A stretch of DNA of 64,000 nt, taken from the NCBI GenBank assembly GCA_963718615.1, contig OY970368.1:3347973-3411972 (forward strand). Reading direction: 5' to 3'. Of this stretch, positions 1 to 42,174 are shown piece by piece. Positions within the stretch are counted from its first letter, which is position 1; every line of letters begins with the position of its first letter. This DNA is from an uncultured cyanobacterium (lineage in GTDB: Bacteria > Cyanobacteriota > Cyanobacteriia > PCC-9006 > JAAUQQ01). The translations under genes and the position numbers were made by a program. Under the pieces are notes generated by a model. The model saw only the letters and a program-made list of their open reading frames with translations, had not been told where the DNA came from and searched no databases.

Positions 1-3000
1 AATGAGCAATTTGTCGATCAATTTGTTTATGCGGCTTTCACTAATGTTGGTGAGCAGCAGGCTAGTGGTCAGATTAACGGGATTAATTTTACCTACACAA
101 CGACTCAGACTGTCCTCAACATTACAAACTCAATGTATAACCATGGGACTTTCCCATCTGAGTACGATGTTCCCAATGTAAATCCCACCATTCGCAATGA
201 CCAAGCCTCAACGAATCAATTGGTATTTGAGCAGCCAATGCTCAATCCAGTGCTGGTTTTTTCGTCGATTGGCAATCCTTTGACTCCTGTGCCAATTGAG
301 TTTGGAGCGCCAGTTGAAATTCTCTGGTCTCAAGATGTAACGATTAATAGCCCCACTAGTATCACAGGAGCAGAAGGGTTTGCGATCGTTCGATTTAACG
401 GCCTGTTTGATGTCATTGATTTTCAATATCTAGCAGACGAGACATATGTAAACTTTGCCTTTGGGGCTAGCTTTAAACAGGGGGAGGATACCGACGGTGA
501 TGGTATTCAGGATTATCTGGACCTCGACTCCGATAACGACGGTATTACCGACAATGTCGAGGCGCAAACGACAGCCGACTATATTGCGCCGACCGGCACC
601 GATAACGATGGTGACGGTCTCGATGATGCCTATGAGGGCGCGGGTAACCAGGGGCTGACTCCGGTCAACACCGACGGCACGGATGCCGTCGACTATCTGG
701 ACTCAGATTCTGATAACGACGGCATCAGCGATGCTGCCGAGCGTGGAACCGGTGGACCCACAACGAATGCAACGGGACTCTCCGACGCGACCACCGATGC
801 TGACGGCGATGGTCTGTTCGACGTTTTCGAAGGAGGTACGCCCAACGATGGCTTCGACGTCAACGGTGACAACCTGACGGGCACGACTTTTAATCTCGCC
901 GATACTGATAACGATGTCCTCTCTGATGGCAGCGATGCCATTGCCCGATCTAATGATCTCGACTATCGCGACAACAGCACCGAAGTTTCGATCACCGCTA
1001 ACGATGCTAACGCGGCTGAAGCCGCCGACAACGGTCAATTCACCGTCACCCTAAACCAGCCCTTCAGTAGCGACACCACCGTCAACTACAGCATTAGTGG
1101 AACGGCCAGCAATGGCACAGACTACACAACCCTGACCGGCTCGGTCATAATTCCTGCTGGTGCCACTTCCGCGCCCATCAATATCGCTGTTACGGATGAT
1201 CCCTTAGTGGAGCAGGATGAAACCGTCATCCTAACCCTTACCAGTGCCACCAACCCCAAGGGCACTGTGACGCTAGGAAGTGAAAATACTGCAACGGTCA
1301 ACATCACTGATACAGATACGGCTTTAGTGTCTATCAGTGCTACGGATGCGATCGCGGCAGAAGATATCAACAATGGGCAATTTACCGTTAGCCTCACGAA
1401 TCCCAGCGATGTTGATACCGTCATCAGCTACAGCATCGGGGGAGATGCAACCCCCGGCAGTGACTATACGCCCCTTACCGGAACGGTCACCATTCTGGCA
1501 GGTAATACCAGCGCCACCATCAACGTATCGGTTCTAGATGACAGCCTTAGTGAGCTCGATGAAGCCGTCACGGTTACCCTAATAGCCATAACCAGTGGGG
1601 ATAGCGATGTTTCCATTAACCTCGCCCAAAACGCTTCGACAGTAACGATTCTGGCGGATACCGATGGCGACAATGTTCCTGACATCATTGACCTAGACGA
1701 CGACAACGATGGCATCCTCGACACGGTTGAAGCTGCCACTGCTCCTGCGAATGGTGACACCGATGGAGATGGCATTCCGGATCGCCTCGACCTTGATTCT
1801 GACAACGACGGCATCAACGATGTCATCGAAGCGGGTCATGGCGTCACCGATACCGATGGCGATGGTATGCTCGATGGGCCTGTCGGTAGCGATGGGATTC
1901 CCGATGCCGTTCAATCTAGTCCGAATAGTGGCATCGTCAACTATGCTCTGGCGAATACCGATGGTGATGGTCAGCCTGACTTCCAAGACCTCGACTCCGA
2001 TAATGATAGTCTCTCCGACCTGATCGAAGGCGGCAGTGGCGGAGCCGATGCAAATAACGATGGCGTAGTGGATGGTCCCGATACCGATGGCGATGGCATC
2101 CAGGATTCAGTTGATGCAACACCTACGACCTATGGTGATGGAGCCAGTCCTGCACTGCCCGATGCCGATAGTGCAGCCAATCCCAATACCCCCGACTATA
2201 TCGATGTTGATAGCAACAACAACGGAATCAACGACATCGCTGAAGCGGGCAATGGCATTCTCGATCCCAATGGGGATGGGGCGATCGATAACATCACCGA
2301 CAATGACAAAGACGGCATTCCCGACGTCGTCGACGATTCCGATCTCGATGGAATTCCTGACGCCGTTGATGGCACACCCAATCCAGCTTTCGGGGGGCTG
2401 GGAGAGCCCGATAGCGATGGGGATGGCATTGCAAACGTTGATGACCTCGACGACGACAATGATGGAATTTTAGATGCGGTTGAAGAAGCAGGAAACGCCA
2501 TTCGCGACACCGATGGCGATGGAATTCTCGATCGCCTAGACCTAGACTCTGATAACGACGGCATCAACGATGTGCTCGAAGCGGGCCACGGAGCACCGGA
2601 TGCCAATGGCGACGGCATCCTCGATGGTCCCGTTGGAAGTGATGGTATTCCCGATTCAGTCCAGGCTTCACCCAATGATGGCACCGTGAACTACGGTTTA
2701 CCTGCCAACAGTGACAGCGACCCCATCCCCGACTTCCAAGACCTCGACTCTGACAACGACAGCCTCAGCGACCTCTACGAAGGCGGGAGCGGTGGCCCCG
2801 ATGCCAACAATGATGGCGTCGTTGACGGGATTGATAGTGACGGCGATGGCATTCTCGACGCAGTAGATGGTGTGCCTGCAACCTATGGGGATGCGGGAAG
2901 TCCTGCACTGCCCAACGCTGATAATGACCTAGTCCCGAACTACATTGACCCCGACAGCGATAGTGATGGGGTCAATGACATCGATGAAGCTAGCAATGGT

Positions 3001-6000
3001 AGTTTAGATGTCAATAACGATGGCGAGATAGATGACCTTGCTGATGCCGATGGGGATGGTGTTCCCGATGTCATTGATGACTCCGATTTAGATGGCACGC
3101 CTGATAAAACTGATACCACGCCCAATGCTGGCTTTGGTGGTCTGGGTCTTGTGGACACGGATGGCGATGGCGTTGCTGATATTGCAGACCTGGATGACGA
3201 CAACGATGGCATTCTGGATACTGTTGAAGAGGCAGGGAATCCGGATCGAGATACTGATGGCGATAGCATTCTAGATCGTTTGGATCTAGACGCCGATAAT
3301 GACGGCATCAATGACTTGATTGAAGCTGGACATGGTGCCATTGATGCCAATGGCGATGGCTTGGTGGATGGCAATGTCGGAGCCAATGGTTATGTGGATA
3401 TTCTAGAGACCACTCCCGATTCCGGCGAAGCGAATTTTGCACCTCGTAATAGCGACAACGATGCCAATCCCGATTTTCAAGATCTTGATGCTGATAATGA
3501 CAGCATTAGCGATCTGATTGAAGGCGGCAGCAATGGTGCAGACGCCAACAACGATGGCGTGGTGGATGGACCCGACACCGATGGAGATGGTATCCAAGAT
3601 AGTGTGGATGGCACACCCAATAGTTTTGGGGATAGCGGCAGTCCTGCGGTCCCCAATGATGATGCAGACACAACACCCAACTACATCGACCCAGACAGCA
3701 ACAATGATGGCACTCATGACATCCTCGAAACCGGCAACGGTGTTCTAGATGGCAATGGGGATGGGGTCATCGATAATGCCACAGATCTGGATGGAGACGG
3801 CATTGCTGATGTCATTGATGATTCTGACAACGATGGCACACCTGATGCAGTAGACACGACACCGAATGCAGCCTTTGGCGGTTTAGGGGGGCCTGCACCG
3901 GATGCAGATGGGGATGGCATTGCCAACGATGCAGATCTCGACGATGACAACGATGGCATTTTAGACAGCATTGAAGAAGCGGGAGACCCAACCAGGGATA
4001 CGGATGGAGATGGCATTCCGGATCGCCTCGACCTTGATTCTGACAACGATGGCATCAACGATGTCATCGAAGCGGGTCATGGCGTAACCGATACCGATGG
4101 CGATGGTATGCTCGATGGGCCTATCGGTAGCGATGGGATTCCCGATGCCGTTCAATCTAGTCCGAATAGTGGCATCGTCAACTATGCTCTGGCGAATACC
4201 GATGGTGATGGCCAGCCCGACTTCCAAGACCTTGATTCTGATAACGATAGCCTTAGTGACTTAGTTGAAGGCGGCAGCGGAGGTAATGATAGCGATGGCG
4301 ATGGCGTCGTCGATGGTCCCGATACCGACAAAGATGGAATTCAAGATTCCGTCGATGGTAACCCAGGTCTCTATGGGGATGGAGGAAATTTCGCACCGCA
4401 AAACAGCGATAGCGATCCAAATCCGGATTACATCGATATTGATAGTGACGGAAATGGCGTTGATGATATTGACCAGGCCGGAAGTACAATTCTCGACGGG
4501 AATAACGATGGCAGAATCGATGACATTACCGATAACGATAACGACGGCATTGCTGATGTTATTGACGATTCCGATCAAGATGGGATTCCTGATATTTCCG
4601 ATAGTGATCCCCAAAGCTTTGGCGGGCTAGGTAAGGCCGACACCGATGGCGATGGCATTCTCAACTCGGAGGATTTGGATGATGATAATGATGGGATTCT
4701 GGATACCGTTGAAGAAGCTGGAGATATCGATCGCGACACCGATGGCGATGGCATTCTAGACCGTTTGGATCTCGACAGCGATAACGACGGCATCAACGAT
4801 GTGCTCGAAGCGGGTCACGGAGCACCTGACGCCAATGGCGACGGCATCCTCGATGGTCCCGTTGGAAGCGATGGTATTCCCGATTCAGTGCAGGCTTCAC
4901 CCAATGATGGCACCGTGAACTACGGTTTACCTGCCAACAGTGACAGCGACCCCATCCCCGATTTCCAAGACCTCGACTCTGACAACGACAGCCTCAGCGA
5001 CCTCTACGAAGGCGGGAGCGGTGGCCCCGATGCCAACAATGATGGCGTCGTTGACGGGATTGATAGTGACGGCGATGGCATTCTCGACGCAGTAGATGGT
5101 GTGCCTGCAACCTATGGGGATGCGGGAAGTCCTGCGCTGCCCAACGCTGATAATGACCTAGCCCCGAACTACATTGACCCCGACAGCGATGGTGATGGGG
5201 TCAATGACATCGATGAAGCTAGCAATGGTGGTTTAGATGTCAATAACGATGGCGAGATTGATGACCTTGCTGATGCCGATGGAGATGGTGTTCCCGATGT
5301 CATTGATGACTCCGATTTAGATGGCACGCCTGATAAAACTGATACCACGCCCAATGCTGGCTTTGGTGGTCTGGGTCTTGTGGACACGGATGGTGATGGC
5401 GTTGCTGATATTGCAGACCTGGATGACGACAACGATGGCATTCTGGATACTGTTGAAGAGGCAGGGAATCCGGATCGAGATACCGATGGCGATGGCATTC
5501 TAGATCGTTTGGATCTAGACGCCGATAACGACGGCATCAATGACTTGATTGAAGCTGGACATGGTGCCATCGATGCTAATGGCGATGGCTTGGTGGATGG
5601 CAATGTCGGAGCCAATGGTTATGTGGATATTCTAGAGACCACTCCCGATTCCGGCGAAGCGAATTTTGCACCTCGTAATAGCGACAACGATGCCAATCCC
5701 GATTTTCAAGATCTTGATGCTGATAATGACAGCATTAGCGATCTGATTGAAGGCGGCAGCAATGGTGCAGATGCCAACAACGATGGCGTGGTGGATGGGC
5801 CCGACACCGATGGAGATGGTATCCAAGATAGTGTGGATGGTACACCCAATAGTTTTGGGGATAGCGGCAGTCCTGCGGTCCCCAATGATGATGCAGACAC
5901 AACACCCAACTACATCGACCCAGACAGCAACAATGATGGCACTCATGACATCCTCGAAACCGGCAACGGTGTTTTAGATGGCAATGGGGATGGAGTCATC

Positions 6001-8328
6001 GATAATGCCACAGATCTGGATGGAGACGGCATCGCCGATGTCATTGACGATTCTGACAACGATGGCACACCTGATGCAGTAGACACGACACCGAATGCAG
6101 CCTTTGGCGGTTTAGGGGGGCCTGCACCGGATGCAGATGGGGATGGCATTGCCAACGATGCAGATCTCGACGATGACAACGATGGCATTTTAGACAGCAT
6201 TGAAGAAGCGGGAGACCCAACCAGGGATACGGATGGAGATGGCATTCCGGATCGCCTCGACCTTGATTCTGACAACGACGGCATCAACGATGTCATCGAA
6301 GCGGGTCATGGCGTCACCGATACCGATGGCGATGGTATGCTCGATGGCCCAGTGGGGGCCAATGGCGTGGATGATGCTGTTGAATCCTCACCGGATAGTG
6401 GGATTGTGGATGCTCCTGTCAACAGCGACAGTGATGCTCAGCCAGATTTCCAGGATTTGGATGCGGATAACGATGGTCTCTCTGATTTCCTCGAAGGAGG
6501 TGCGCTGTTCAATGGCGGATTTGATGCTGACGATAATGGCGTAATTGATGGACCAGATACAGACAAGGATGGTATTCCTGATTCGGTTGATGGCACACCC
6601 AATGCCTATGGAGATAGCGGCAGTCCGGCATTGCCCGATGGCGATAGTGCTACGGATCCAGATTCGCCGGATTATCGCGATCGCACCAACAACGAAAATG
6701 GCCTCAATGACATCAATCCCGATCTAGATCTCAACAACGACGGTGAAATCGACGATGTCACCGATAACGATAACGATGGCATTGCCGACATCATTGATGA
6801 CTCTGACAGCGATGGTATGGTCGATGCAAACCCCGCAGAAACCGATCCTCAAAGCTTTGGCGGTCTGCCCGCAACGGACACGGATGGGGATGGCGTGCCT
6901 GACAGCCGTGACCTAGACGATGACAACGATGGCATTCTTGACAGCGATGAAGGCAACGGCAAGATTGATACCGATGGCGACGGAATTGTTGATTCCCGCG
7001 ACCTAGATACGGATAACGACGGTATCCTTGATGTGGAAGAAGCGGGCCATAGTCAAGCCGATATCGATGGAGATGGACGGGTTGATGGTCCTGTCGGTAA
7101 TAACGGACTGCCAGATACCGTTGAATCGACTCCCGACAGTGGCATTCCTAGCTATACGGTGTTGGATACCGATGGGGATGGCATTGAGGACTTCAAAGAC
7201 CTCGATTCCGACAACGACGGTATCAATGATGTGATTGAAGGGGGTGGCCAAGACCCCGATGGAGACGGGACGATCCACGGCGGTGGTCCGATTGTGGATG
7301 TGGACCGAGATGGCATTTTGGATGTCATTGATCCGTCCCAAGGGGGAAGTCCTGTTCCTGTGCTGGATACGGATGGCGATGGCATCGAAAATTATCGGGA
7401 TTTAGATTCTGACAATGATGGCGTCAAAGATATTGTCGAAGGTGGAAATGCGGCTGCCGATGCTGATGGGGATGGTCGCATTGACGGGCCAGATGCCGAT
7501 GGGGATGGCATTCCTGATCGGGTCGATCCGTCCCTCGGCTTTGGCGACTCGGGCGATGGCACTGCACCGGATAGCAATGGTGATGGTATTCCCGATTTCC
7601 TCCAACCCGGCAGCAACACGGGCTCCGGCAGCCAAGGCACTGGCGGTAGCGATGTGATTAATGGCGGTGCTGGGGGCGATATTATCAATGGTCTCAGCGA
7701 CGACGACGTTTTGGACGGTGGTGCAGGCGATGATGTGATCAATGGCGGCAGCGACCAAGATACGACTGTTGGGGGAAGCGGCAACGATATTGTTAACGGC
7801 GGTAGCGATGGTGACCAAGTCAATGGCGGCGATGGCAATGACATCGCGAACGGCGGCAGTGGTAATGACCTCATTGCTGGGGATGACGGTGACGATATCA
7901 TGAACGGCGGTAGCGGTCTGGATACACTCTATGGTGGTCTCGGGAATGACATCCTCAATGGCGGCAGTGGAGATGACCTGATCTATGGCGGTGCAGGCAG
8001 TGACATTATTCGTGGCTCTACGGGCAATGACATGCTGGTAGGCGGCGATGGTTCCGATCTGTTGTTTGGTGGTCAAGGAGATGATCGCTTTGTCTACGAA
8101 TCCCTGAGCGAATTCGGCGATACGATTCTTGATTTTGAGATTGTGCGCGATCGCATCGATCTCCAAGGCATTTTCAACGGTAATGCGGCCCTAGGTAGCA
8201 ATGTGCAAGCGCAACAGCTCGGTCTGCATTCGCTGATTCTTGCCAATACAGGCTCCGGTATGCAACAGGTTGCCATGCTGCTCAATGTTAATGCCAGTAC
8301 CTTAGATAGCAGCAACTTTATCTTCTAA
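1..8328 (+). CDS. Giant secreted calcium-binding repeat protein (5' partial; thrombospondin-type-3-like Asp-rich repeats, two Calx-beta domains, 7 tandem ~247-aa units, C-terminal RTX nonapeptide block)
   Basis: Frame is open from nt 1, so the gene continues upstream of the window (ORF track starts at an internal Met, 133). Dense DxDxDGxxD motifs; Calx-beta-like segments (e.g. 'NYSISGTASNGTDYTTLTGSVIIPAGATS...DDPLVEQDETVILTLTS'); GGxGxDxxx repeats at about nt 7650-8090; C-terminal region typical of type I secretion substrates. Confidence 0.85.
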   Translation, partial: NEQFVDQFVYAAFTNVGEQQASGQINGINFTYTTTQTVLNITNSMYNHGTFPSEYDVPNVNPTIRNDQASTNQLVFEQPMLNPVLVFSSIGNPLTPVPIEFGAPVEILWSQDVTINSPTSITGAEGFAIVRFNGLFDVIDFQYLADETYVNFAFGASFKQGEDTDGDGIQDYLDLDSDNDGITDNVEAQTTADYIAPTGTDNDGDGLDDAYEGAGNQGLTPVNTDGTDAVDYLDSDSDNDGISDAAERGTGGPTTNATGLSDATTDADGDGLFDVFEGGTPNDGFDVNGDNLTGTTFNLADTDNDVLSDGSDAIARSNDLDYRDNSTEVSITANDANAAEAADNGQFTVTLNQPFSSDTTVNYSISGTASNGTDYTTLTGSVIIPAGATSAPINIAVTDDPLVEQDETVILTLTSATNPKGTVTLGSENTATVNITDTDTALVSISATDAIAAEDINNGQFTVSLTNPSDVDTVISYSIGGDATPGSDYTPLTGTVTILAGNTSATINVSVLDDSLSELDEAVTVTLIAITSGDSDVSINLAQNASTVTILADTDGDNVPDIIDLDDDNDGILDTVEAATAPANGDTDGDGIPDRLDLDSDNDGINDVIEAGHGVTDTDGDGMLDGPVGSDGIPDAVQSSPNSGIVNYALANTDGDGQPDFQDLDSDNDSLSDLIEGGSGGADANNDGVVDGPDTDGDGIQDSVDATPTTYGDGASPALPDADSAANPNTPDYIDVDSNNNGINDIAEAGNGILDPNGDGAIDNITDNDKDGIPDVVDDSDLDGIPDAVDGTPNPAFGGLGEPDSDGDGIANVDDLDDDNDGILDAVEEAGNAIRDTDGDGILDRLDLDSDNDGINDVLEAGHGAPDANGDGILDGPVGSDGIPDSVQASPNDGTVNYGLPANSDSDPIPDFQDLDSDNDSLSDLYEGGSGGPDANNDGVVDGIDSDGDGILDAVDGVPATYGDAGSPALPNADNDLVPNYIDPDSDSDGVNDIDEASNGSLDVNNDGEIDDLADADGDGVPDVIDDSDLDGTPDKTDTTPNAGFGGLGLVDTDGDGVADIADLDDDNDGILDTVEEAGNPDRDTDGDSILDRLDLDADNDGINDLIEAGHGAIDANGDGLVDGNVGANGYVDILETTPDSGEANFAPRNSDNDANPDFQDLDADNDSISDLIEGGSNGADANNDGVVDGPDTDGDGIQDSVDGTPNSFGDSGSPAVPNDDADTTPNYIDPDSNNDGTHDILETGNGVLDGNGDGVIDNATDLDGDGIADVIDDSDNDGTPDAVDTTPNAAFGGLGGPAPDADGDGIANDADLDDDNDGILDSIEEAGDPTRDTDGDGIPDRLDLDSDNDGINDVIEAGHGVTDTDGDGMLDGPIGSDGIPDAVQSSPNSGIVNYALANTDGDGQPDFQDLDSDNDSLSDLVEGGSGGNDSDGDGVVDGPDTDKDGIQDSVDGNPGLYGDGGNFAPQNSDSDPNPDYIDIDSDGNGVDDIDQAGSTILDGNNDGRIDDITDNDNDGIADVIDDSDQDGIPDISDSDPQSFGGLGKADTDGDGILNSEDLDDDNDGILDTVEEAGDIDRDTDGDGILDRLDLDSDNDGINDVLEAGHGAPDANGDGILDGPVGSDGIPDSVQASPNDGTVNYGLPANSDSDPIPDFQDLDSDNDSLSDLYEGGSGGPDANNDGVVDGIDSDGDGILDAVDGVPATYGDAGSPALPNADNDLAPNYIDPDSDGDGVNDIDEASNGGLDVNNDGEIDDLADADGDGVPDVIDDSDLDGTPDKTDTTPNAGFGGLGLVDTDGDGVADIADLDDDNDGILDTVEEAGNPDRDTDGDGILDRLDLDADNDGINDLIEAGHGAIDANGDGLVDGNVGANGYVDILETTPDSGEANFAPRNSDNDANPDFQDLDADNDSISDLIEGGSNGADANNDGVVDGPDTDGDGIQDSVDGTPNSFGDSGSPAVPNDDADTTPNYIDPDSNNDGTHDILETGNGVLDGNGDGVIDNATDLDGDGIADVIDDSDNDGTPDAVDTTPNAAFGGLGGPAPDADGDGIANDADLDDDNDGILDSIEEAGDPTRDTDGDGIPDRLDLDSDNDGINDVIEAGHGVTDTDGDGMLDGPVGANGVDDAVESSPDSGIVDAPVNSDSDAQPDFQDLDADNDGLSDFLEGGALFNGGFDADDNGVIDGPDTDKDGIPDSVDGTPNAYGDSGSPALPDGDSATDPDSPDYRDRTNNENGLNDINPDLDLNNDGEIDDVTDNDNDGIADIIDDSDSDGMVDANPAETDPQSFGGLPATDTDGDGVPDSRDLDDDNDGILDSDEGNGKIDTDGDGIVDSRDLDTDNDGILDVEEAGHSQADIDGDGRVDGPVGNNGLPDTVESTPDSGIPSYTVLDTDGDGIEDFKDLDSDNDGINDVIEGGGQDPDGDGTIHGGGPIVDVDRDGILDVIDPSQGGSPVPVLDTDGDGIENYRDLDSDNDGVKDIVEGGNAAADADGDGRIDGPDADGDGIPDRVDPSLGFGDSGDGTAPDSNGDGIPDFLQPGSNTGSGSQGTGGSDVINGGAGGDIINGLSDDDVLDGGAGDDVINGGSDQDTTVGGSGNDIVNGGSDGDQVNGGDGNDIANGGSGNDLIAGDDGDDIMNGGSGLDTLYGGLGNDILNGGSGDDLIYGGAGSDIIRGSTGNDMLVGGDGSDLLFGGQGDDRFVYESLSEFGDTILDFEIVRDRIDLQGIFNGNAALGSNVQAQQLGLHSLILANTGSGMQQVAMLLNVNASTLDSSNFIF
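1690..6909 (+). repeat. Intragenic tandem array: 7 units of 738-753 bp (types A-C-B-A-C-B-A), each starting with 'DLDDDNDGILD'; higher-order period 2229 bp
   Basis: Unit starts read at 1690, 2443, 3187, 3934, 4672, 5416, 6163, next at 6910. Units 2-3 and the first part of unit 4 (about 2500-4125) are near-identical at DNA level to units 5-6 and the first part of unit 7 (about 4730-6355). Antisense ORF-track entries 2940..3386 and 5169..5615 are near-duplicates exactly 2229 bp apart. Confidence 0.9.
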
Positions 8329-8378
8329 GGTGTTGAGCTTGCTTCTCCTCCTGGAGAAAAGGGTGGATGCTTAAAAGT

Positions 8379-8411
8379 CTAGATTGGGTTAATTGACGAA
8401 ACCCAATCTAG
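8379..8411 (+). terminator. Stem-loop downstream of the giant gene (11-bp perfect stem ctagattgggt / acccaatctag, 11-nt loop); no clear U-tract
   Basis: Inverted repeat read directly in the sequence about 50 nt after the stop at 8328. Confidence 0.35.
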
Positions 8412-8505
8412 GCTGAAAAGAGGTTTCGAAAGAAGGTTAAAAATGAGTTTCAGTGGGGCATTCTAGCAACTTTTAAATTTTGAATTGAAAAGGCAGAGTT
8501 TTTCC

Positions 8506-10242
8506 ATGGCTGAGCTGACCCCGGTAGAGTTGGGTAACCCTGTTTCCTTGCTCAACGAGAGTGATTATGCTGCGCTTCAGGCGTTGTATATTAACACGGA
8601 TGGTGAGCAGTGGAAAAATAATCAAGGTTGGCAAGATTGGGATTTTTTAAGCCCAACACCACCCGAACTGTCGGTCATGAATGGCTGGTTTGGAGTCAGT
8701 TTGAGTGGCGATCGCATCACCACTCTCTCCCTCGGCAGCAATCGACTGAAGGGCAACTTACCAACGGCCTTAGGCCAACTCTCCGACCTCAAAACGCTCT
8801 ATCTTTATGGTAATCAGTTAACCGGTGTTATCCCGGAATCCCTGGGAAATTTGAGCCAGCTTAATCACCTAGCATTGAGTGGTAATCAACTGGATGGAGC
8901 ATTGCCTTCAAACCTGGGAAATCTTGCTAATTTACAATATCTTTATCTGAACAACAATCGTTTACAAGGGGTGCTACCGACAGAATTTGCCGATCTGGAA
9001 GAGCTGATTTACCTCTCTCTTGCAGACAACCAATTCAGGGGTGAAATCCCGGAGACTTGGGGCAGTTGGCCCAACCTTAAAACCTTGCAATTGGCCAATA
9101 ACCAACTGAGCGGAACGGTTCCCCCAGCGCTAATAGATGCAATTCATCAAGGGAGCGGTTCTTACAATCTCAATAACCCGATCGCGGTGACCGGTTTGCC
9201 AGCGACCATTGCCCTCATGGAAGCGATTGAACCCACTGCGATCGCCTTGACGTTCAGCGATCTCGATGCTCTGGGCAGTGACGATCTGGAGACTTTGGCC
9301 CTCACCGCAACGGTCGATCATCCCGATCTCGTGACCCTCGAACTCACTGGAACCGGGGCCGATCGAACCCTCAACCTCATGCCCCAACCCAATCGAGCTG
9401 GAACCACAACGCTGCGGCTAACCGCCCAAGATGACAGTGGCGAACAAACGACGGTGGCGATCGCCCTCACACTCCAGGACCAACCGGAAACCGGAAGTTT
9501 TAGCGCTGTTAGGGATTTGTTGTGGCGCAATCCCACCACAGGCGAAAATCTCCTTTGGCGGATGGCCGGACTCGATCGAGTTGAAACAATTGCGCTCACG
9601 GCAGGATTGGATGCTAACTGGGAATGGGTCGGCCTCGGCCAATTTAATGGGGATGATCAGACGGATTTGGTCGGGCGAAATGCTCAAACGGGCGAGACCC
9701 AACTGTGGCTGATGAATGGCAATGCCTTGGCCGAAACGGTGACTTGGACTGCGAACCAAAACGAAGGACAGTTGGTAGGATTAGGTGATTTTGATGGCGA
9801 TGCTCAAACCGATTTGATTTGGCGAAATTCCCAAACAGGGCAAAATTATATTTGGTATTTGAACGGTAATGCGCTGCGTCAGCGTCAGCCATTGATGGCG
9901 ATCGCCGACTCCCATTGGCAGATCGTCGGCACAGGACAATTTAATCAGGATGCCTACAGCGATCTAATTTGGCGCAATCTTAAAACAGGGCAAACTTTGC
10001 TTTGGCTCATGCAAGCCGGAAGCCCCATGGCGGCCTTACCGCTCCCATCCGTATCCAATCTAGACTGGCAACTGGTGGGGACCCGAGATTTAAATCAAGA
10101 TGGTGGATCAGACCTACTCTGGCAAAATGCCCAGACCGGGGCCGCAGTGGCTTGGTTGATGCAGAGCGGTCAGCGGCTGTCGGCCCATCACTTGAACCCT
10201 GCGGGAGATTTGGGAGCATCGGCCCATTGGAGTTTGAGTTAA
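8506..10242 (+). CDS. Leucine-rich repeat protein fused to FG-GAP/VCBS-like beta-propeller repeats
   Basis: N-terminal half has about 7 LRRs of the LxxLxxLxLxxNxLxGxIP type ('LSDLKTLYLYGNQLTGVIPESLGNLSQL...'); C-terminal half has repeated 'GxFxGDxQTDLIWRNxxTGQ' motifs. ATG at 8506; ORF track begins at an in-frame TTG at 8485. Confidence 0.75.
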   Translation: MAELTPVELGNPVSLLNESDYAALQALYINTDGEQWKNNQGWQDWDFLSPTPPELSVMNGWFGVSLSGDRITTLSLGSNRLKGNLPTALGQLSDLKTLYLYGNQLTGVIPESLGNLSQLNHLALSGNQLDGALPSNLGNLANLQYLYLNNNRLQGVLPTEFADLEELIYLSLADNQFRGEIPETWGSWPNLKTLQLANNQLSGTVPPALIDAIHQGSGSYNLNNPIAVTGLPATIALMEAIEPTAIALTFSDLDALGSDDLETLALTATVDHPDLVTLELTGTGADRTLNLMPQPNRAGTTTLRLTAQDDSGEQTTVAIALTLQDQPETGSFSAVRDLLWRNPTTGENLLWRMAGLDRVETIALTAGLDANWEWVGLGQFNGDDQTDLVGRNAQTGETQLWLMNGNALAETVTWTANQNEGQLVGLGDFDGDAQTDLIWRNSQTGQNYIWYLNGNALRQRQPLMAIADSHWQIVGTGQFNQDAYSDLIWRNLKTGQTLLWLMQAGSPMAALPLPSVSNLDWQLVGTRDLNQDGGSDLLWQNAQTGAAVAWLMQSGQRLSAHHLNPAGDLGASAHWSLS

Positions 10243-10243
10243 C

Positions 10244-11368
10244 CTAATCCTTGGGTAAGCGATTGCCTCGGGACGATTGCCATTGATTCAGCCAAACCGC
10301 TAACAGCGTCACCACCGACAGCGGAATCACAAATAGAATCATCGCTCCACTAAAGGGACCTAGGACCGCATGGTCCATAGTTCGCAGCACCAAATAGGCA
10401 ACGTAGGCCGCGTAATAGCCCACAAACACCAGCCCTTCCCAGCGGCTAATGACATTTCCCGTAAAGAAAATCGGCAGACAGGCGATCGCCACCGCAATCA
10501 TAATCGGAATATCAAACCGGACCGCTGCGGAGGATACCGCCAACCCCGCCGGAGAAAACAAACTGGAAAGACCCAAAACCACCAAAATATTAAAAATATT
10601 GCTGCCAACCACATTGCCCACGGCAATATCCCGTTCGCCCTTCAGCGTCGCCACGATCGAGGTTGCCAGCTCCGGCAGCGATGTTCCGGCGGCCACAATG
10701 GTCAAGCCAATCACCAGTTCACTCACCCCGATGGCTTGGGCGATCGCGATCGCAGAAGTCACTAACCACCGAGACCCCAAAAGCAACAACCCAACGCCCA
10801 AACCAATCCAGCCTAGGTTAATGGCCCATGTCTTTAGCGTCATTTTCTGATTGCTCTGGTCTCCGCCTCCATATTCCTGCGCATATTCCGCCCGCACGGC
10901 TTCATTTTGCTCTCGGCGGGATTGGATAATCTGAAAGGCCGTATAGCCAATACCACCTGCGCTCAGGAGCAGCCCATCGGGCAACGTCAGGCGACCATCA
11001 GCACCCAGAACCAGCATCAGAATCGAGACCCCGATCATCACTGGCACATCAATCCGAACCAGCTGTTGGGCGACGACAAGGGGGGCCGCAAGGGCAGACA
11101 ATCCCAAAATCAGCAAGACATTAAAAATATTGCTCCCCACGACATTGCCCACGGCGATATCAATCTGGCCCGTAAGGCTCGACTGAATACTCACCGCCAG
11201 CTCCGGCGCACTCGTTCCGTAGGCAACAATCGTCAATCCAATAATTAACGGCGAAATGCCCAGACTCGTGGCTAAGTTTGAGGCTCCCCGTACCAGCGCA
11301 TCCGCGCCAACCACCAATAGTGCAAGACCCGCAACTAACAGAACGATCGTAGCGATGCTCATACACAA
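10244..11368 (-). CDS. Na+/Ca2+ exchanger (CaCA family, YrbG-like)
   Basis: Polytopic membrane protein with two internal alpha-repeats 'GNVVGSNIFNVLLILG' and 'GNVVGSNIFNILVVLG', the signature of CaCA exchangers. Confidence 0.85.
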   Translation of the reverse strand: MCMSIATIVLLVAGLALLVVGADALVRGASNLATSLGISPLIIGLTIVAYGTSAPELAVSIQSSLTGQIDIAVGNVVGSNIFNVLLILGLSALAAPLVVAQQLVRIDVPVMIGVSILMLVLGADGRLTLPDGLLLSAGGIGYTAFQIIQSRREQNEAVRAEYAQEYGGGDQSNQKMTLKTWAINLGWIGLGVGLLLLGSRWLVTSAIAIAQAIGVSELVIGLTIVAAGTSLPELATSIVATLKGERDIAVGNVVGSNIFNILVVLGLSSLFSPAGLAVSSAAVRFDIPIMIAVAIACLPIFFTGNVISRWEGLVFVGYYAAYVAYLVLRTMDHAVLGPFSGAMILFVIPLSVVTLLAVWLNQWQSSRGNRLPKD

Positions 11369-11567
11369 AGACAGCCGGAGACATCTCTCGGAGGAAAAGG
11401 TTGACGATGTTTAAGAATTTGAGTTAGCCCTCGATTTTCCCACGAAAGCCGGGTCTGGGGATCACGCTGCGATAAATCTTGATTCCTCTGCACGCTTCCT
11501 AGGGAGAGCTGCTACGCTAAAATCGTTAACTTACGTAACAGATTCGCTGAAACTGTTTAGTGAAGTC

Positions 11568-12623
11568 GTGGTGGAATCCCGTGAACGTCAAATTCGCCGC
11601 GAGCTTATTGCCGCCATCTTGCTCTTCTTGGGGGTTCTGCTGATCGGCACGGCAGGATATCGGACGATTGAGCGATGGAGCTTGCTGGACTCCGCTTATA
11701 TGACCATTATTACCCTAAGCAGCGTAGGGTTCGGCGAAATCCAGCCCCTCAGCCCCCCAGGAAGACTCTTTACAATTTCGCTGATTTTGATGGGCCTTTT
11801 GAGCATTGGCTATATTGTCAATCGATTTACAGAGGCTATTGTCCAGGGCTACTTTCAAGATAGCCTGCGTTCTCGCCGGAAACGACGTGTGATCAAGAAA
11901 CTACGCAATCACTATATTTTATGTGGCTATGGCAGGGCCGGTCGCCATGTGGCCCATGAATTTGCCGAGGAGCAGGTACCGTTTATCGTCGTCGATCCGC
12001 AGCCCGAAGCAATTCTGGATGCAAAACAGCGTGGCTACCTTACCTACCAGGGAGATGCGACCCTTGATCAAACCCTGATTGCAGTGGGAATCCAGGATGC
12101 CAATTGCATTGTGGCGGCGATGCCTTCGGACTCGGACAATCTTTACACCGTGCTTTCCGCCAAAGCCCTGCGACCAGGTTTACGGACGATCGCCCGCGCC
12201 AATACCGAAGAAGCCGTCATCAAGATGCAGCGAGCGGGGGCCGATGCGGTGATCTCTCCTTATATTACGGGGGGAAAACGGTTGGCCGCAGCAGCACTAC
12301 GCCCTCAGGTGATGGATTTTGTAGATGGCATTGGATTGGGAGGCGATCGCTCCTTTTATCTAGAGGAGGTCGTGATTCACGCCCAGGACTGTCCCTATGT
12401 GAATCAGGAATTGCGGGAGACGGATTTGCGATCGCGCAGCAGCGCTCTCATCCTGGCGATTCGTCGCACCGAGGGGGAGCTAATTCCAGGGCCTACCGGA
12501 GAAACTCGCTTGCTGGATGGCGATTTGCTGATTTGCATGGGAACAGCAGAACAACTCCGAACGCTCATCAAAATTCTGATCCCCCTGGGCTCGACCATGC
12601 CGCGTTTGCCCCGCAATCAGTAA
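11568..12623 (+). CDS. Two-TM K+-channel-like protein with cytoplasmic RCK (TrkA-N/TrkA-C) domain
   Basis: Pore segment 'TLSSVGFGE' between two hydrophobic helices; Rossmann motif 'ILCGYGRAGRHVA' of TrkA-N/RCK follows. GTG start. Confidence 0.8.
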   Translation: MVESRERQIRRELIAAILLFLGVLLIGTAGYRTIERWSLLDSAYMTIITLSSVGFGEIQPLSPPGRLFTISLILMGLLSIGYIVNRFTEAIVQGYFQDSLRSRRKRRVIKKLRNHYILCGYGRAGRHVAHEFAEEQVPFIVVDPQPEAILDAKQRGYLTYQGDATLDQTLIAVGIQDANCIVAAMPSDSDNLYTVLSAKALRPGLRTIARANTEEAVIKMQRAGADAVISPYITGGKRLAAAALRPQVMDFVDGIGLGGDRSFYLEEVVIHAQDCPYVNQELRETDLRSRSSALILAIRRTEGELIPGPTGETRLLDGDLLICMGTAEQLRTLIKILIPLGSTMPRLPRNQ

Positions 12624-12700
12624 AATTCCTTAAAATTGCTTGCAACCCAAAAGTTGACCGGACCTTCGGCTTAATCTCCGCACAATTTCGATGGCGTGTC

Positions 12701-12913
12701 CTAATTGAGCTTGAGCGCTGCAACCGGAACCTCATCCCAGGAGGAAACCCTATACATCCGAACGGTCCATCCCTGAGCTTTTTGAGCATCGCTTAAATTT
12801 TCCTGAAAGGAAACATAACATTCCCTGGCTTGCTCTTCATTGCAACAAGCGATACAGGCATAGAGAATCCCAGCCGGATCCACCTGTTCATTTACCCAAA
12901 TGGTTTTAGACAT
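12701..12913 (-). CDS. Small hypothetical protein (70 aa)
   Basis: ATG-initiated ORF in the gap between the channel gene and psbA; no recognisable domain. Confidence 0.3.
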   Translation of the reverse strand: MSKTIWVNEQVDPAGILYACIACCNEEQARECYVSFQENLSDAQKAQGWTVRMYRVSSWDEVPVAALKLN

Positions 12914-13148
12914 GCTTTCACTTTACAAAAATAAACAAAGCTTGAGCAAATACTCAAACAAACTACAAATAAGTTAATGGCAAGGTTTTTGAAAGTCTTG
13001 TAGCCTTTAATTAAGGCATTGCAACGAAAGTTGACTGTCTTTTCATAATTCGCATTCCTAGTTAAAAGCTTACAGGCAATTTGTCTAAATGGCTTTAGCC
13101 GGGATTGTCAGTCTTTATCTGTACATTTCTCGCAATTCATAAATCACC

Positions 13149-14231
13149 ATGACGACTACACTTCGCGGACGCGAAAGTGCCAGTACGTGGGAGCGCTTTT
13201 GCGCTTGGATCACAAGCACCAACAACCGCATTTATGTGGGTTGGTTTGGCGTTCTGATGATCCCTTGCCTGCTTACTGCCACGATTTGCTTCATTATTGC
13301 GTTTATCGCAGCACCTCCCGTCGATATCGATGGCATCCGTGAGCCTGTGGCTGGCTCCTTGCTCTACGGCAACAACATCATGTCTGGCGCGGTTGTGCCC
13401 TCTTCCAACGCCATTGGCCTGCACTTCTACCCCATCTGGGAAGCAGCTTCCCTCGATGAGTGGTTGTACAACGGCGGCCCTTACCAATTGGTTTGCTTCC
13501 ACTTCCTCATCGGCATTTTCTGCTGGATGGGTCGTCAGTGGGAACTCTCCTACCGCCTCGGCATGCGTCCTTGGATTTGTGTGGCTTACTCTGCACCTGT
13601 AGCAGCAGCAACCTCAGTTTTCCTGATCTACCCGATCGGCCAAGGTTCGTTCTCCGATGGTATGCCCCTGGGTATCTCCGGTACATTCAACTTCATGTTC
13701 GTGTTCCAGGCTGAGCACAACATTCTGATGCACCCCTTCCACATGCTCGGTGTGGCTGGCGTCTTCGGTGGAAGCTTGTTCTCCGCAATGCACGGTTCGT
13801 TGGTGACTTCTTCCTTGGTGCGTGAGACCACTGAAGTAGAATCCCAGAACTACGGCTACAAGTTTGGACAAGAAGAGGAAACCTACAACATCGTTGCAGC
13901 CCACGGCTACTTCGGTCGTCTGATTTTCCAATACGCTTCGTTCAACAACAGTCGTGCACTGCACTTCTTCTTGGGTGCATGGCCGGTTGTAGGCATTTGG
14001 TTGACCGCAATGGGCATCAGTACCATGGCATTCAACCTCAATGGCTTTAACTTCAACCAGTCTGTGATTGATAGCCAAGGTCGCGTTGTTGCAACCTGGG
14101 CCGATGTCCTCAACCGTGCGAACCTGGGTATGGAAGTGATGCACGAGCGCAATGCTCACAACTTCCCCTTGGATCTCGCTTCGGGTGAAGCTACTCCCGT
14201 TGCCCTGACTGCTCCTGCGATCAACGGCTAA
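13149..14231 (+). CDS. psbA: Photosystem II reaction centre protein D1
   Basis: Translation is unmistakably D1 ([39 protein letters not shown] ... [23 protein letters not shown]), including the C-terminal extension removed by CtpA. Confidence 0.97.
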
Positions 14232-20383: not shown

Positions 20384-20406
20384 CCCAGACCGTTTTGAGC
20401 CTTCCC

Positions 20407-21675
20407 ATGACTCCTCCCCATGACCCTTCTGCCTCGCGATCGCCCCTTCGGTGGCTCACCCCCAAACCTTGGCTGCTCCAGCGCGATCGCCTCACCCACG
20501 GGCTCGAAATCCGCTGGGTCAACCCCTCCTATAGCGGTTGGGTGTTGATAGGACTAGGGGCGTTTTTCTTTTTGGCGGCGAGCAACACCATGGCGGGTTG
20601 GCTCTACGTGATGAGTGGGGTGACCGTGGCGCTGTTGGCGATCGCCACCTACCTGGCTCGGCGCAGTCTGAAAGGATTGACCGTGACTCGGAGCGATCGC
20701 GCCGCCTTTGTCAGCACCGATCAGCCGATTCCCCTGAGCCTCGCGATCGAAAATTCTACAAGTCAGCCCAAAACCCTTCTGGAACTCCAAGAGGGTCCAC
20801 CGCTTGCGGTCGAGAGCTGCTATCGACAGGCGATCGCCCTGATCCCCGCCCGCGATCGCTTGCCCCTGCGCTACAGCCTCCCAGGCCAACCCCGAGGCAT
20901 TCTTCGCTGGGAAACCTTGACACTGCGCAGTGCCGCGCCCCTAGGGTTGCTCTGGCACCGTCGGACCCTAGAGGCTCCCTTCAAAGCCGTCGTCTCTCCC
21001 CCGATTTTGCCCCTTGATCGCTGTTCCCTGGTGGATAGTCTTGGACAGGAGCAAAACCCCAACCTCCTGAAGATTCAGCGATCGCAAACCGCCAACGAAG
21101 GCCTCACCCGCGCCCTGCGACCCTATCGCTGGGGCGACCCCATCCGCATGGTCCATTGGCGAACCAGCGCCCGTTATGGCGAACTGCGCGTCCGCGAACT
21201 AGAAACCCTCCAAGCCGGGGAAGACATTGTTTTTGCCCTGGACGACCAACATCCTTGGTTTGCCATCCCCGAACTGAACCTTACCGGCCTAGGCCAGCTT
21301 CGCCCCCAGGCGATCAATAGCTTCGAGCAAGCCGTCGTCGCCCTCGCGTCCCTGTATCGTTACGCGAGCCGTTATCAGAGCCGAGTTGCCCTCTGGACCC
21401 AAACCCATGGGTTGCTTCGAGGCGATCGCCCCATCCTCGAAGCCCTCGCCGGCATTCAGCCCCCTGCCCCCACGCCCCAAACCATTCGTTCTCCTAGCGA
21501 TCGCCCCCAGCAACCGCTCATCTGGCTGACCCAAACCCCCAACACCCTCAGTCAACTTCCTCCCGGCAGCCGCTGGCTCCTTTGGCCTCATCCTGCGATC
21601 CCTCTTCAATCCTTGAATACCAAGGGACTGACCCTAGATCCCCCTCAACCCCTCCAATTCCAGCTGCAATTCTAG
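20407..21675 (+). CDS. DUF58-family protein
   Basis: N-terminal TM helices followed by the DUF58-like motif 'YRWGDPIRMVHWRTSARYGELRVRELE'. ATG at 20407; ORF track starts at TTG 20395. Confidence 0.65.
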   Translation: MTPPHDPSASRSPLRWLTPKPWLLQRDRLTHGLEIRWVNPSYSGWVLIGLGAFFFLAASNTMAGWLYVMSGVTVALLAIATYLARRSLKGLTVTRSDRAAFVSTDQPIPLSLAIENSTSQPKTLLELQEGPPLAVESCYRQAIALIPARDRLPLRYSLPGQPRGILRWETLTLRSAAPLGLLWHRRTLEAPFKAVVSPPILPLDRCSLVDSLGQEQNPNLLKIQRSQTANEGLTRALRPYRWGDPIRMVHWRTSARYGELRVRELETLQAGEDIVFALDDQHPWFAIPELNLTGLGQLRPQAINSFEQAVVALASLYRYASRYQSRVALWTQTHGLLRGDRPILEALAGIQPPAPTPQTIRSPSDRPQQPLIWLTQTPNTLSQLPPGSRWLLWPHPAIPLQSLNTKGLTLDPPQPLQFQLQF

Positions 21676-30934: not shown

Positions 30935-32002
30935 ATGGGCTCATCCAATCCGACGGCAGCGCTGGAAACCCTTCAGTCAGAACTCTCTACCCTTATTGCT
31001 CAATTACCGTCCTTAGAACATGGCAAGCTGATTAAGCGTGTTCTAGAAAGCCTCTTGGTGATGGCCCAGGAAGACCTAGAACGCCTGGATTGGAAAATTT
31101 TGCTGGGCTCTTTGCAAGACATGGAGCGAGCCTTCACGCTGTTTTCGCCCTATCGACATATTCGCAAAATTGCGGTGTTTGGTTCAGCGCGAACGCCAAA
31201 GACGGACCCGGATTATCCGATGGCGGTTGAGTTTTCTCGCCGGATGGCGGAGCAAGGCTTCATGATTATGACGGGTGCAGGGGGGGGGATCATGGAGGCA
31301 GCGAATGAAGGGGCGGGGCGATCGCAATCCTTTGGGCTCAATGTCCAACTCCCCTTCGAGCAAAGCGCCAATCCCTTTATCAAAGGGGATAATAAGCTTC
31401 TGCAATTTAAATACTTTTTCACCCGCAAACTCTTTTTTCTGCGGGAAACCGATGCAGTCGCGGCCTTCCCTGGTGGTTATGGCACCATGGATGAACTCTA
31501 TGAATGTTTAACCCTGGTGCAAACGGGAAAATTTGGACCAGCACCGCTCATTTTGGTTGATCGACCGGGTGGAGATTATTGGCAGGAGTGGGAGAAATTT
31601 AGTAAGGATCAGCTTCTTCTAAAAGGACTCATTAGTCCTGAAGATCCTTGCCTATATACGATTACGGATCAAGTCGAAGTTGCCTGTCGAGTTATCTCTG
31701 ATTTCTATCGTGTTTACCATTCTAGTCGCTATGTTGGACCCTTGTTTATCATGCGGCTCAAGGCTGAACTAACGGATGAAGATGTAGAGTTTCTGAATCA
31801 TTCATTCAAAGATATTTTAGTCACCGATCGGATTGAAAAAACTCAAGCCCTGCCGGAAGAGGCCGCCGATGAAACCGTTGGCATGCCGCGCCTTAAGTTT
31901 CACTATAATCAGCGAGATACGGGACGTCTTTATCAACTGATTGCAGAAGTGAATCGATTGGGTGTCAAGTCCCTAGGTGAAGCTCACCCAGAGCAAAAAT
32001 AA
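30935..32002 (+). CDS. LOG-family protein (lysine-decarboxylase-like fold, long form)
   Basis: 'IAVFGSART', 'TGAGGGIMEAANEGA' and 'PGGYGTMDELYE' motifs. Confidence 0.8.
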   Translation: MGSSNPTAALETLQSELSTLIAQLPSLEHGKLIKRVLESLLVMAQEDLERLDWKILLGSLQDMERAFTLFSPYRHIRKIAVFGSARTPKTDPDYPMAVEFSRRMAEQGFMIMTGAGGGIMEAANEGAGRSQSFGLNVQLPFEQSANPFIKGDNKLLQFKYFFTRKLFFLRETDAVAAFPGGYGTMDELYECLTLVQTGKFGPAPLILVDRPGGDYWQEWEKFSKDQLLLKGLISPEDPCLYTITDQVEVACRVISDFYRVYHSSRYVGPLFIMRLKAELTDEDVEFLNHSFKDILVTDRIEKTQALPEEAADETVGMPRLKFHYNQRDTGRLYQLIAEVNRLGVKSLGEAHPEQK

Positions 32003-32311
32003 TTTGATTATCGCATCCTAAGAAGAGTCAATGTTCCAATTTTATAGCATTGACTTTGTGGGCCTAATGATTGCTCTCGACCTTGACTCCAATACAGTTC
32101 TTGGCCCAGTAAATTAATATTGTCTAAAGTTATTCGTGATCATTTTACCAACAGCTTTCTTACGTATTTGAGACAGCTTTATCGATAAATTGGGAAAACT
32201 AGAAGCTAAGCACTACACGATTTAATTTTCTGTTTCTCGGAAAATCGAGGATCTTTATCAGGGTTGCATTTGCTGTACTCCCGTCAGGAAAGTCTACCAG
32301 GACTGTGTCTC

Positions 32312-34924: not shown

Positions 34925-35231
34925 ATTAGTAAAACTATCTTTTCAAAGAGATACCTTTTAATAACATTTTGATGGACTGTATGAGTGCAAAACTAAATCA
35001 TTAAAAATTGAGAAAGCTATTTACTTCTCTACAGACAATTATTAATCAATGCCTTTGGGTCTGATGAACGACATCTACTGGTGCGAATATATCGAGAATT
35101 TAAAAAGAAAAAACTAGATTTATAGGCTCACAAGGCATTGGCAAGGCATTAGCAATGTCTTACCTCCAAAAAGCATAGACTCGACAACCTCCCAAATATT
35201 CTAAACAGCCAATAAAGAGAAGAAAAAACTT

Positions 35232-35627
35232 TTATTGTATTTCTAGTTTCAGGCTTGGCATCAAACGTTGTAAATTCTTTAGAGATTTACCCTGCCAAGG
35301 AATCTCTTCGTTACCTAGCACAGTTAATTGAACTGTTTTACGCTTCCTAATGTTGATTACAAACTTAGATAATAAGCTAATTCCCAAGCTATTTAGGAAC
35401 TGGAGCGAGCGTAAGTCAATTATAATTAGAGACGACTCTTGGTCTGCCATGGCTTCTAACATAGAGATAATTTGTTGATAATCAGGCTCACTGCCTTGAA
35501 ATCTCATCGAGCCTTCCAGTCGGATAGTTGCTTGATTAGAATCGTAAAAGACACAATATTTTTCATGGGAAATTTTCATATGTAATACTTCTTTGAATGG
35601 AGATTGAGAACTAGGCATGATATTCAA
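35232..35627 (-). CDS. STAS-domain protein (anti-sigma-factor-antagonist / SpoIIAA-RsbV-like)
   Basis: 'IIDLRSLQFLNSLGISLL' resembles the SpoIIAA phospho-serine region (DLSxVxF[MI]DSSGLG); last gene of the minus-strand operon. Confidence 0.5.
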   Translation of the reverse strand: MNIMPSSQSPFKEVLHMKISHEKYCVFYDSNQATIRLEGSMRFQGSEPDYQQIISMLEAMADQESSLIIIDLRSLQFLNSLGISLLSKFVINIRKRKTVQLTVLGNEEIPWQGKSLKNLQRLMPSLKLEIQ

Positions 35628-35695
35628 AAAATGTGAAGCAGAAAGGATCGTTAACAGCTTTAAAGATGACCAAATCGAACAGTAGTCCTATAAGT

Positions 35696-36295
35696 CTAAA
35701 TAGCTAGTTGTACCATAGTCGTAACCGTTATACTATCCTGACTAGTCGACTCATATTCAAACTTCCAGCCTAACTTTGCCGAATAGTCATTTAGCATAGT
35801 AAGTAGACCCAGCCCAGAATCAATATGATTTTCAGCATTTCTTTCGAGCTGACGAATATAAAGCTCTTCTGGATCTGAATTGACAACCTCTTCAATATAG
35901 CGTTGGAAACTTAAAACTGAATGCGGATTGATACTGTTTTTGATAAAGAAGATAATTTTGTCGACATCAAAGCAGAGACGAATTTGCGTATAGTCTACTT
36001 GGTTTTTATAACTAAACTTCATCGCATTTTCCAATAGCTCGTTGGCAATGAAGCTTACTGCATCTTTAATTTCAGCTTGTTTTTTCTGAGCCGCAAGATC
36101 TTCGTCCTTAATTGGTAAACAAGTTACAAGATAATCAGCGAGGAAATCAGCAGATATACCATTATTGCGCCATCTTTTCCTAGGAGGAGCACTACTAGGT
36201 GTGAAATGCAAAACTAGCTGCTCTCTGCAAGGAGGTAAGGCATCAATAAAATCACCAAACGTTGTAGCTGTTGGTATTATATTTCTGATAGTCAT
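35696..36295 (-). CDS. GHKL-type ATPase, anti-sigma-factor-like serine kinase (RsbW/SiaB-like)
   Basis: N-box-like 'ANELLENAMKFS' and G-box-like 'DSGLGL'; about 200 aa with no HisKA domain; adjacent to the STAS gene. Confidence 0.5.
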   Translation of the reverse strand: MTIRNIIPTATTFGDFIDALPPCREQLVLHFTPSSAPPRKRWRNNGISADFLADYLVTCLPIKDEDLAAQKKQAEIKDAVSFIANELLENAMKFSYKNQVDYTQIRLCFDVDKIIFFIKNSINPHSVLSFQRYIEEVVNSDPEELYIRQLERNAENHIDSGLGLLTMLNDYSAKLGWKFEYESTSQDSITVTTMVQLAI

Positions 36296-36323
36296 TGTTT
36301 TTCCTCGGAGTAGTTAATTAGTT

Positions 36324-38126: not shown

Positions 38127-38128
38127 AG

Positions 38129-38515: not shown

Positions 38516-38576
38516 AAATTTAAAGGTCAAAATTCTTAAAAAGATTAGGGAAATAGGCAAAAGTTTAAATCTCCAA

Positions 38577-41054: not shown

Positions 41055-41092
41055 CAGCTCCTAAGAAAGGACAAACAACAATCGTTGTTTGA

Positions 41093-42121: not shown

Positions 42122-42174
42122 GACTCAATACCTCAAAAATAAAGAGAAAAACTATATTGGTTTATTAATGAAAC

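Follow-up and report, generated by a model that had tools for sequence, protein, structure and literature searches.

A 64,000-nucleotide stretch of contig OY970368.1 from an uncultured cyanobacterium (the window) encodes a 578-amino-acid (aa) protein in which a leucine-rich repeat (LRR) domain like those of plant receptors is joined to a β-propeller with calcium-type loops. From the N terminus, its modules are a Cys-free cap, six LRRs, an immunoglobulin (Ig)-like spacer and five FG-GAP/VCBS repeats (Table 1), and the product has a computed mass of 62.7 kDa, a pI of 4.19 and not a single Cys residue. No catalytic domain was found in it by Pfam analysis. We regard the domain composition and the folds as established, and propose with a probability of about 0.5 that the protein is an exported bridge, in which the Ca2+-loop propeller would sit on a glycan and the concave face of the LRR domain on a protein or peptide, with the Ig domain as a spacer.

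A preliminary description of this region, made from the DNA letters alone, had proposed that an LRR domain and an FG-GAP-like propeller are fused in one protein. This fusion holds: the gene is a single open reading frame (ORF) without interruption, which runs from an ATG at 8506, or an alternative TTG at 8485, to a stop at 10242, both halves match Pfam models, and an identical gene was found elsewhere. The TTG is the most upstream start possible and would add only the residues MKRQSFS. On an independently assembled contig from the Logan entry ERR12035938, the same 578-aa product is called from the ATG and has the same neighbours, the downstream Na/Ca-exchanger and TrkA-channel genes, and the fusion is therefore not an accident of assembly. 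Although it is called on this one Logan contig, the exact 578-aa sequence has no match in a collection of 15 billion proteins, and the protein gave no self-match in homology searches. A full-length alignment in which fragments of both halves were mixed (A1) was dropped because MAFFT spread LRR fragments over the propeller; the halves were aligned and modelled separately, using 22 trimmed homologues of the N-terminal part (A3) and 23 trimmed homologues of the propeller (A2), and the structures given here for the protein itself are AlphaFold2 predictions.

Pfam analysis of the N-terminal part returned LRR_1 (2e-22, 74.9 bits, cut-off 20.6), LRR_8 (4.4e-21, 74.8 bits, cut-off 27) and LRR_4 (3e-15) over aa 70–205, as well as LRR_14 (1e-10). 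The underlying unit, LxxLxLxxNxLxGxhPxxLGxLxx, begins at aa 71, 95, 119, 143, 167 and 191, and the six copies share 29–54% identity pairwise. A phmmer search of solved structures found the closest sequences in the ectodomains of plant LRR receptor kinases, led by GSO1 (1.8e-143) and followed by MIK2, FLS2, PEPR1, BRI1 and others. In the model built with A3, aa 11–210 have predicted local distance difference test (pLDDT) values of 91–99 and are predicted to form a curved solenoid in which short strands alternate with helices. The best size-matched Foldseek hits for this solenoid are the SERK1, SERK2 and BAK1 ectodomains (TMt 0.80–0.86, 32–39% identity), and PGIP and FLS2 are also among its LRR matches. 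The N-terminal part is thus an LRR domain of the plant-specific (PS) class of receptor-kinase type, as the preliminary description had suggested. The repeats are preceded by a cap with a helix at aa 18–30 and the motif LxxLYxxTxGxxWxxxxGW...WxGV, in which L24, G33, W36, W42 and W61 are invariant among the bacterial homologues of A3. The Trp-rich N-terminal cap that had been claimed is therefore real and conserved, but it is a structural analogue of LRRNT rather than a member of that family: it has the helix and the Trp residues, it lacks the paired Cys, and LRRNT_2 (PF08263) was not reported for the protein even at E values up to 1.

The two halves are separated by an Ig-like domain at approximately aa 241–325, which did not feature in the preliminary description. 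The Pfam match to Big_9 over aa 242–321 is weak (E 0.005), the model places six β-strands in this region (pLDDT 53–89) after a linker of low model confidence (aa 215–240), and the region aligns with a Big_9 domain of P0002, a 1004-aa Leptolyngbya protein annotated as a 'DUF4347 domain-containing protein'. P0002, whose architecture is DUF4347-(cap-LRR-Big_9)x2-RTX, is the nearest relative of the N-terminal half, with 43% identity across the whole cap-LRR-Ig cassette, and it shares an unusual cap insertion, WKDWDF...TPP. An exhaustive search showed that the cassette is also repeated in several giant bacterial proteins (P0178, P0179, P0191 and P0301). Because it recurs in P0002 and in these giant proteins, the N-terminal 330 aa are a pre-existing portable unit.

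The C-terminal half matches Pfam FG-GAP (3.7e-12, 46.3 bits, cut-off 22.1), most strongly at aa 423–452, and FG-GAP_3/VCBS (1.3e-9, 39.0 bits, cut-off 26.9). A DLxWRN core occurs at aa 337, 387, 436, 486 and 536, a period of 49–50 residues, and the repeats are 29–49% identical pairwise. The count of about six repeats given earlier therefore has to be lowered to five, only four of which are preceded by the FxGD-type loop. With A2, AlphaFold2 returned a closed model (pLDDT 86.5, predicted template modelling score 0.84) whose 20 strands make up five four-stranded blades. The final strand, HWSLS, matches the first-strand pattern of each blade and many homologues stop right after the equivalent strand, so it probably completes blade 1 and thereby closes the ring. 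Loops of the DxDxDxxxD type lie ahead of blades 2–5 only, with none at blade 1; two are canonical and two begin with Gln. The family consensus for this loop is GDFNGDGKxD, and D107, D111, D115, D161 and D165 of the fragment aligned in A2 are invariant or nearly so. DxDxDG is the cation motif of VCBS propellers, which typically recognise carbohydrates, while protein–protein interactions have also been reported (PMC9218822).

Relatives of the propeller have 5, 6, 7 or 10 repeats, which fits the variable blade counts described for VCBS propellers (PMC9218822), and the domains that precede it in these proteins include matrixin, CAP, subtilase, trypsin, FGE-sulfatase, legume-lectin-like and TIG domains. 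We regard it as a promiscuous, portable C-terminal targeting module. The preliminary description had named a C terminus that is not a propeller, or an N terminus that is not LRR, as grounds for abandoning its proposal; both points were checked, and hidden Markov models and structure predictions favour the proposal on each. Among the models that it had suggested searching, LRR_8, FG-GAP and VCBS (as FG-GAP_3) were matched, whereas LRRNT_2 was not.

Every module of this protein is well known and only their combination is unusual, being present in none of 310 relatives. Searches with the whole protein or its C-terminal 354 aa gave 160 homologues, in none of which the two halves occur together, and the same holds for the 150 best matches of an exhaustive HMMER search among 1.84 billion representatives. 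These 150 matches (at least 554 bits) consist entirely of giant proteins with multiple LRR domains or propellers, and a 578-aa orthologue at approximately 40% identity could fall below 554 bits, so its absence is not proven. No orthologues were found in GTDB species genomes, and the JGI metagenomes yielded a single fragment, located at the end of a contig and limited to the LRR part (L001, 44% over aa 1–154). The failure to find both halves in any other protein could be explained if the fusion were an artefact of assembly, or a decaying gene born of the accidental juxtaposition of two genes. We consider this highly improbable, as the frame is intact, the identical gene is present on an independently assembled contig, the three domains are modelled with good confidence and clean boundaries, and cap-LRR-Ig is a pre-existing cassette of other proteins. 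Most likely, this is a binding protein of an ordinary kind, secreted or on the surface, made of common parts in an uncommon order.

The nearest solved folds to the propeller are five- and six-bladed lectin or hydrolase propellers (UmbA4, tachylectin-2 and GH43), with UmbA the best, and the model is consistent with a five- to seven-bladed fold resembling lectin propellers of the UmbA and tachylectin-2 type. UmbA propellers have been shown experimentally to be glycan-recognising, target-specifying domains that fall into five-, six- and seven-bladed families (PMC13274773), and the C-terminal propellers of umbrella toxins feature conserved Ca2+-type loops and variable pockets (PMC13274773, PMC11062931). 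No umb genes are present here. The sequence profile of the propeller did not detect UmbA, so pocket residues cannot be transferred from UmbA. A lectin-like propeller is nevertheless favoured, because UmbA recognises glycans, VCBS propellers typically recognise carbohydrates and relatives with five, six and seven blades exist. Among solved structures, the profile matched only CRTAC1 (2.7e-7) and integrin αV (~1e-3), over one or two blades. A Foldseek search of the PDB gave TM values below 0.5 for the propeller and was uninformative; its list includes integrin heads and TcB propellers. These matches, along with the protein–protein interactions also mediated by VCBS propellers (PMC9218822), would suit a secreted cross-linker or adhesin that binds proteins at both ends, its propeller acting like an integrin-α/CRTAC1 head; we judge this rather unlikely.

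Neither a signal peptide nor a lipobox was detected from either start codon, a call based on a hydropathy heuristic only: the maximum ten-residue hydropathy within the first 45 aa is 1.0, compared with at least 2 in homologues with clear signal peptides. The maximum over 19 residues is 1.25 and no transmembrane segment was found, in line with what the preliminary description had stated on both counts. Pfam analysis revealed neither RTX/HemolysinCabind repeats nor a recognised sorting domain in the 578 aa. Signal peptides or lipoboxes are obvious in approximately half of the propeller relatives and are frequent in non-cyanobacterial ones, and signals for type IX secretion system (T9SS) sorting or RTX signals are frequent among the LRR relatives, while cyanobacterial propeller relatives (Leptolyngbya, Calothrix and Nodosilinea) feature neither signal peptide nor lipobox. 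One of these, P0021 from Leptolyngbya boryana (755 aa, computed mass 80.39 kDa, no signal peptide), is probably LBDG_07530, an 80.4-kDa FG-GAP protein identified with TolC and porins in a culture-medium/vesicle fraction (PMC9003413); this identification is by species, annotation and mass, with accessions not matched directly. An acidic pI and the absence of Cys are compatible with type I secretion but not specific to that route. Given the extracellular P0021/LBDG_07530, the export signals of other relatives and the acidic, Cys-free composition, an extracytoplasmic location reached by a non-classical route is the best inference. The earlier remark that localisation is unclear was a fair one, which the homologue data narrow but do not settle.

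Neither start codon gives the protein a Sec or Tat signal, transmembrane segment or sorting motif, and secretion genes are missing from the vicinity, which could instead be read as the mark of a cytoplasmic scaffold or sensor whose LRR domain and propeller bind intracellular partners. This is unlikely, as proteins with either module type overwhelmingly have a signal peptide, a lipobox, or a T9SS or RTX signal, and signalling domains such as an NTPase or kinase are absent from the protein. Moreover, the DxDxDG loops of integrin and VCBS propellers need Ca2+ at extracellular levels. A cyanobacterial relative that itself lacks a signal peptide is also extracellular by experiment (PMC9003413).

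If the protein is an exported bridge, its release would depend on neither a Sec nor a Tat signal, like that of other acidic, Cys-free cyanobacterial exoproteins. The Ca2+-stabilised propeller would then anchor the protein, in the manner of a lectin, to a glycan on a surface or in a matrix, such as those of the sheath or extracellular polymeric substances, lipopolysaccharide or the envelope of another cell, while a partner protein or peptide would bind to the concave face of the LRR domain and the Ig domain would keep the two binding surfaces apart. An extracytoplasmic bridge is also favoured because the P0002 cassette belongs to an RTX protein and because a gene for a giant RTX protein lies immediately upstream. 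We infer export, glycan binding, Ca2+ binding and the identity of the ligands, and a number of observations count against this proposal. The protein itself lacks a signal peptide, lipobox, transmembrane segment, RTX repeats and a sorting domain, there are no type I secretion genes in the 64-kb window, and the equation of P0021 with LBDG_07530 depends on species, annotation and mass instead of an accession. The likeness to UmbA is one of fold only (18% identity), the sequence profile gives only CRTAC1 and integrin αV, and a likeness of fold between propellers tells little about the ligand. In addition, the first ligand position is Gln in two of the four cation loops, and no orthologues were found in which the conservation of the putative binding surfaces could be checked.

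The LRR-propeller gene is located 178 nt downstream of the giant gene, on the same strand. The encoded giant protein features two Calx-beta domains near its N terminus (9e-23), followed by seven tandem Asp-rich units of approximately 745 nt (approximately 248 aa) that are full of DxDxDGxxD thrombospondin-type-3-like motifs and share 61–83% DNA identity, and by RTX nonapeptide repeats in its last 450 aa (HemolysinCabind 3.8e-33). The giant is probably a Ca2+-binding adhesin exported by type I secretion. Its repeat units match no Pfam model, and Tandem Repeats Finder returned nothing on 1..10300 (periods > 500 nt), whereas a direct-repeat search recovered all seven. RNA folding of the spacer (8329–8505; −50.8 kcal/mol, z −2.2) predicted a hairpin from a perfect-looking 15-bp inverted repeat, TCTAGATTGGGTT...AACCCAATCTAGG, which may terminate transcription or serve in RNA processing or stability. 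Scans of the 178-nt spacer for promoter and terminator consensus sequences gave nothing above chance. Loose copies of the hairpin arm are enriched in the window (7 versus 1.6 expected, with two mismatches or fewer).

On its 3′ side, the LRR-propeller gene is followed by a convergent Na+/Ca2+ exchanger gene, then a TrkA-type K+ channel gene and psbA. This part of the window (10244..14231) is syntenic with the psbA/TrkA/exchanger block of Synechococcales cyanobacterium CRU_2_2, the closest genome found (L002, 6880..11113; 77% identity between the exchangers), where synteny stops exactly at the 3′ end of the exchanger gene and a radical-SAM-like gene takes the place of both the giant and the LRR-propeller genes. 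Their joint absence from this distant relative hints that the two genes travel together.

Another alternative would make the LRR-propeller protein a dedicated accessory of the 2731-aa RTX/Calx-beta protein, with the LRR domain docking on the 248-aa units and the propeller targeting a glycan. In its favour, only 178 nt and no consensus promoter lie between the two genes, which share a strand, both are missing from the syntenic CRU_2_2 block, and UmbA, whose fold matches the propeller best, offers an analogy in the UmbA lectin spokes that are carried on UmbC repeats. However, a strong hairpin separates the genes, the P0021 and P0002 genes are not beside genes for giant repeat proteins and have no conserved operon partner in their neighbourhoods, no toxin domain or UmbB/UmbC-like component is present, and joint absence carries little weight in a comparison with so distant a genome (77% exchanger identity). 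An accessory role is therefore improbable. Very doubtful, by the same analogy, is a two-component cyanobacterial surface system in which the LRR domain would be an adaptor that decorates the reiterated units of the giant with lectin propellers; if true, this would represent a Gram-negative analogue of the Streptomyces umbrella spokes and would set the cells or polymers to which the giant sticks.

Table 1. Positions of the LRR-propeller gene, its modules and the adjoining upstream features in the window.
Feature	Position	Strand	Basis
Gene for the 2731-aa acidic Ca2+-binding protein	133..8328	+	Calx-beta 9e-23; HemolysinCabind 3.8e-33; direct repeats
Hairpin, 15-bp stem, no U-tract after it	8376..8414	+	RNA fold of 8329-8505
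Whole LRR-propeller coding sequence	8506..10242	+	578 aa; ORF list and identical gene call on Logan contig
Cys-free Trp-rich LRR cap, aa 17-68	8554..8709	+	Alignment A3; AlphaFold2 pLDDT 91-98
Six tandem 24-residue PS-class LRRs, aa 71-214	8716..9147	+	Pfam; repeat register; PDB matches; SERK/BAK1-like fold
Ig-like β-sandwich spacer, Big_9/cadherin-like, ~aa 241-325	9226..9480	+	Weak Big_9; alignment with P0002; AlphaFold2
Five FG-GAP/VCBS repeats, predicted closed five-bladed β-propeller	9514..10239	+	
Putative cation loop before blade 2, QFNGDDQTD (aa 379-387), position 1 Q not D	9640..9666	+	Sequence reading; A2 consensus
Putative canonical cation loop before blade 3, DFDGDAQTD (aa 428-436)	9787..9813	+	Sequence reading; A2
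Putative cation loop before blade 4, QFNQDAYSD (aa 478-486), position 1 Q	9937..9963	+	Sequence reading; A2
Putative canonical cation loop before blade 5, DLNQDGGSD (aa 528-536)	10087..10113	+	Sequence reading; A2

Among its markers, the window holds psbA, two tandem clpP genes and similar ones, which show it to be cyanobacterial. The G+C content drops to 0.36–0.42 at approximately 32000..46000, compared with approximately 0.52–0.58 outside, and this region, possibly a horizontally acquired signalling island, encodes PAS-EAL-GGDEF, response-regulator/PP2C (SpoIIE) and hybrid histidine kinase proteins as well as two NMT1-like binding proteins, an aminotransferase and a DHDPS-like protein. A 426-aa ORF at 20395..21675 (+) has no Pfam match at E values up to 1e-5. 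On the opposite strand (49939..53492, −), a gene for a HerA-type ATPase (HAS-barrel and DUF87) adjoins one for a 592-aa DUF389 membrane protein; HerA is often part of defence or DNA-processing pairs.

The LRR-propeller protein does not overturn current understanding. If it is an exported bridge, it would represent a compact binder with two heads and no Cys, which a cyanobacterium releases in the absence of a classical signal, and it would bear both on how signal-less FG-GAP exoproteins leave cyanobacterial cells and on the ligands of plant-type LRR cassettes in bacteria. Its N-terminal part has the 24-residue PS LRRs with LxGxIP, and the N-terminal capping helix followed by W...WxGV, that are common to SERK/BAK1 and other plant LRR receptor-kinase ectodomains and related proteins (FLS2, MIK2, GSO1 and PGIP), and it is the same size as a SERK ectodomain (a cap and five or six LRRs). 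Unlike these plant ectodomains, it has no disulfide-bonded caps, C-terminal cap, transmembrane helix or kinase, and the LRR domain is joined to Ig and propeller domains instead. The cassette is shared with P0002 and with P0178, P0179, P0191 and P0301, but those proteins iterate it, end in RTX or other modules and have no FG-GAP propeller.

For the propeller, the heads of integrin α and CRTAC1 have seven blades as opposed to five repeats and 20 strands here, which rules out an integrin-α-type seven-bladed head, and the sequence likeness to them is confined to one or two blades. UmbA of the Streptomyces umbrella toxin particles (PDB 9oee_A and 8w20_C) is similar by fold at only 18% identity, and UmbA4 has six blades compared with five in the cyanobacterial protein. 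L. boryana P0021 (FG-GAP repeat) belongs to the same propeller family, with 37% identity over the propeller, but its blades number seven and a legume-lectin-like domain stands at its N terminus where the LRR-Ig part is found here. The five- to seven-bladed VCBS propeller, which serves umbrella toxins as a target-recognition lectin, thus also circulates in cyanobacteria as a portable C-terminal module.

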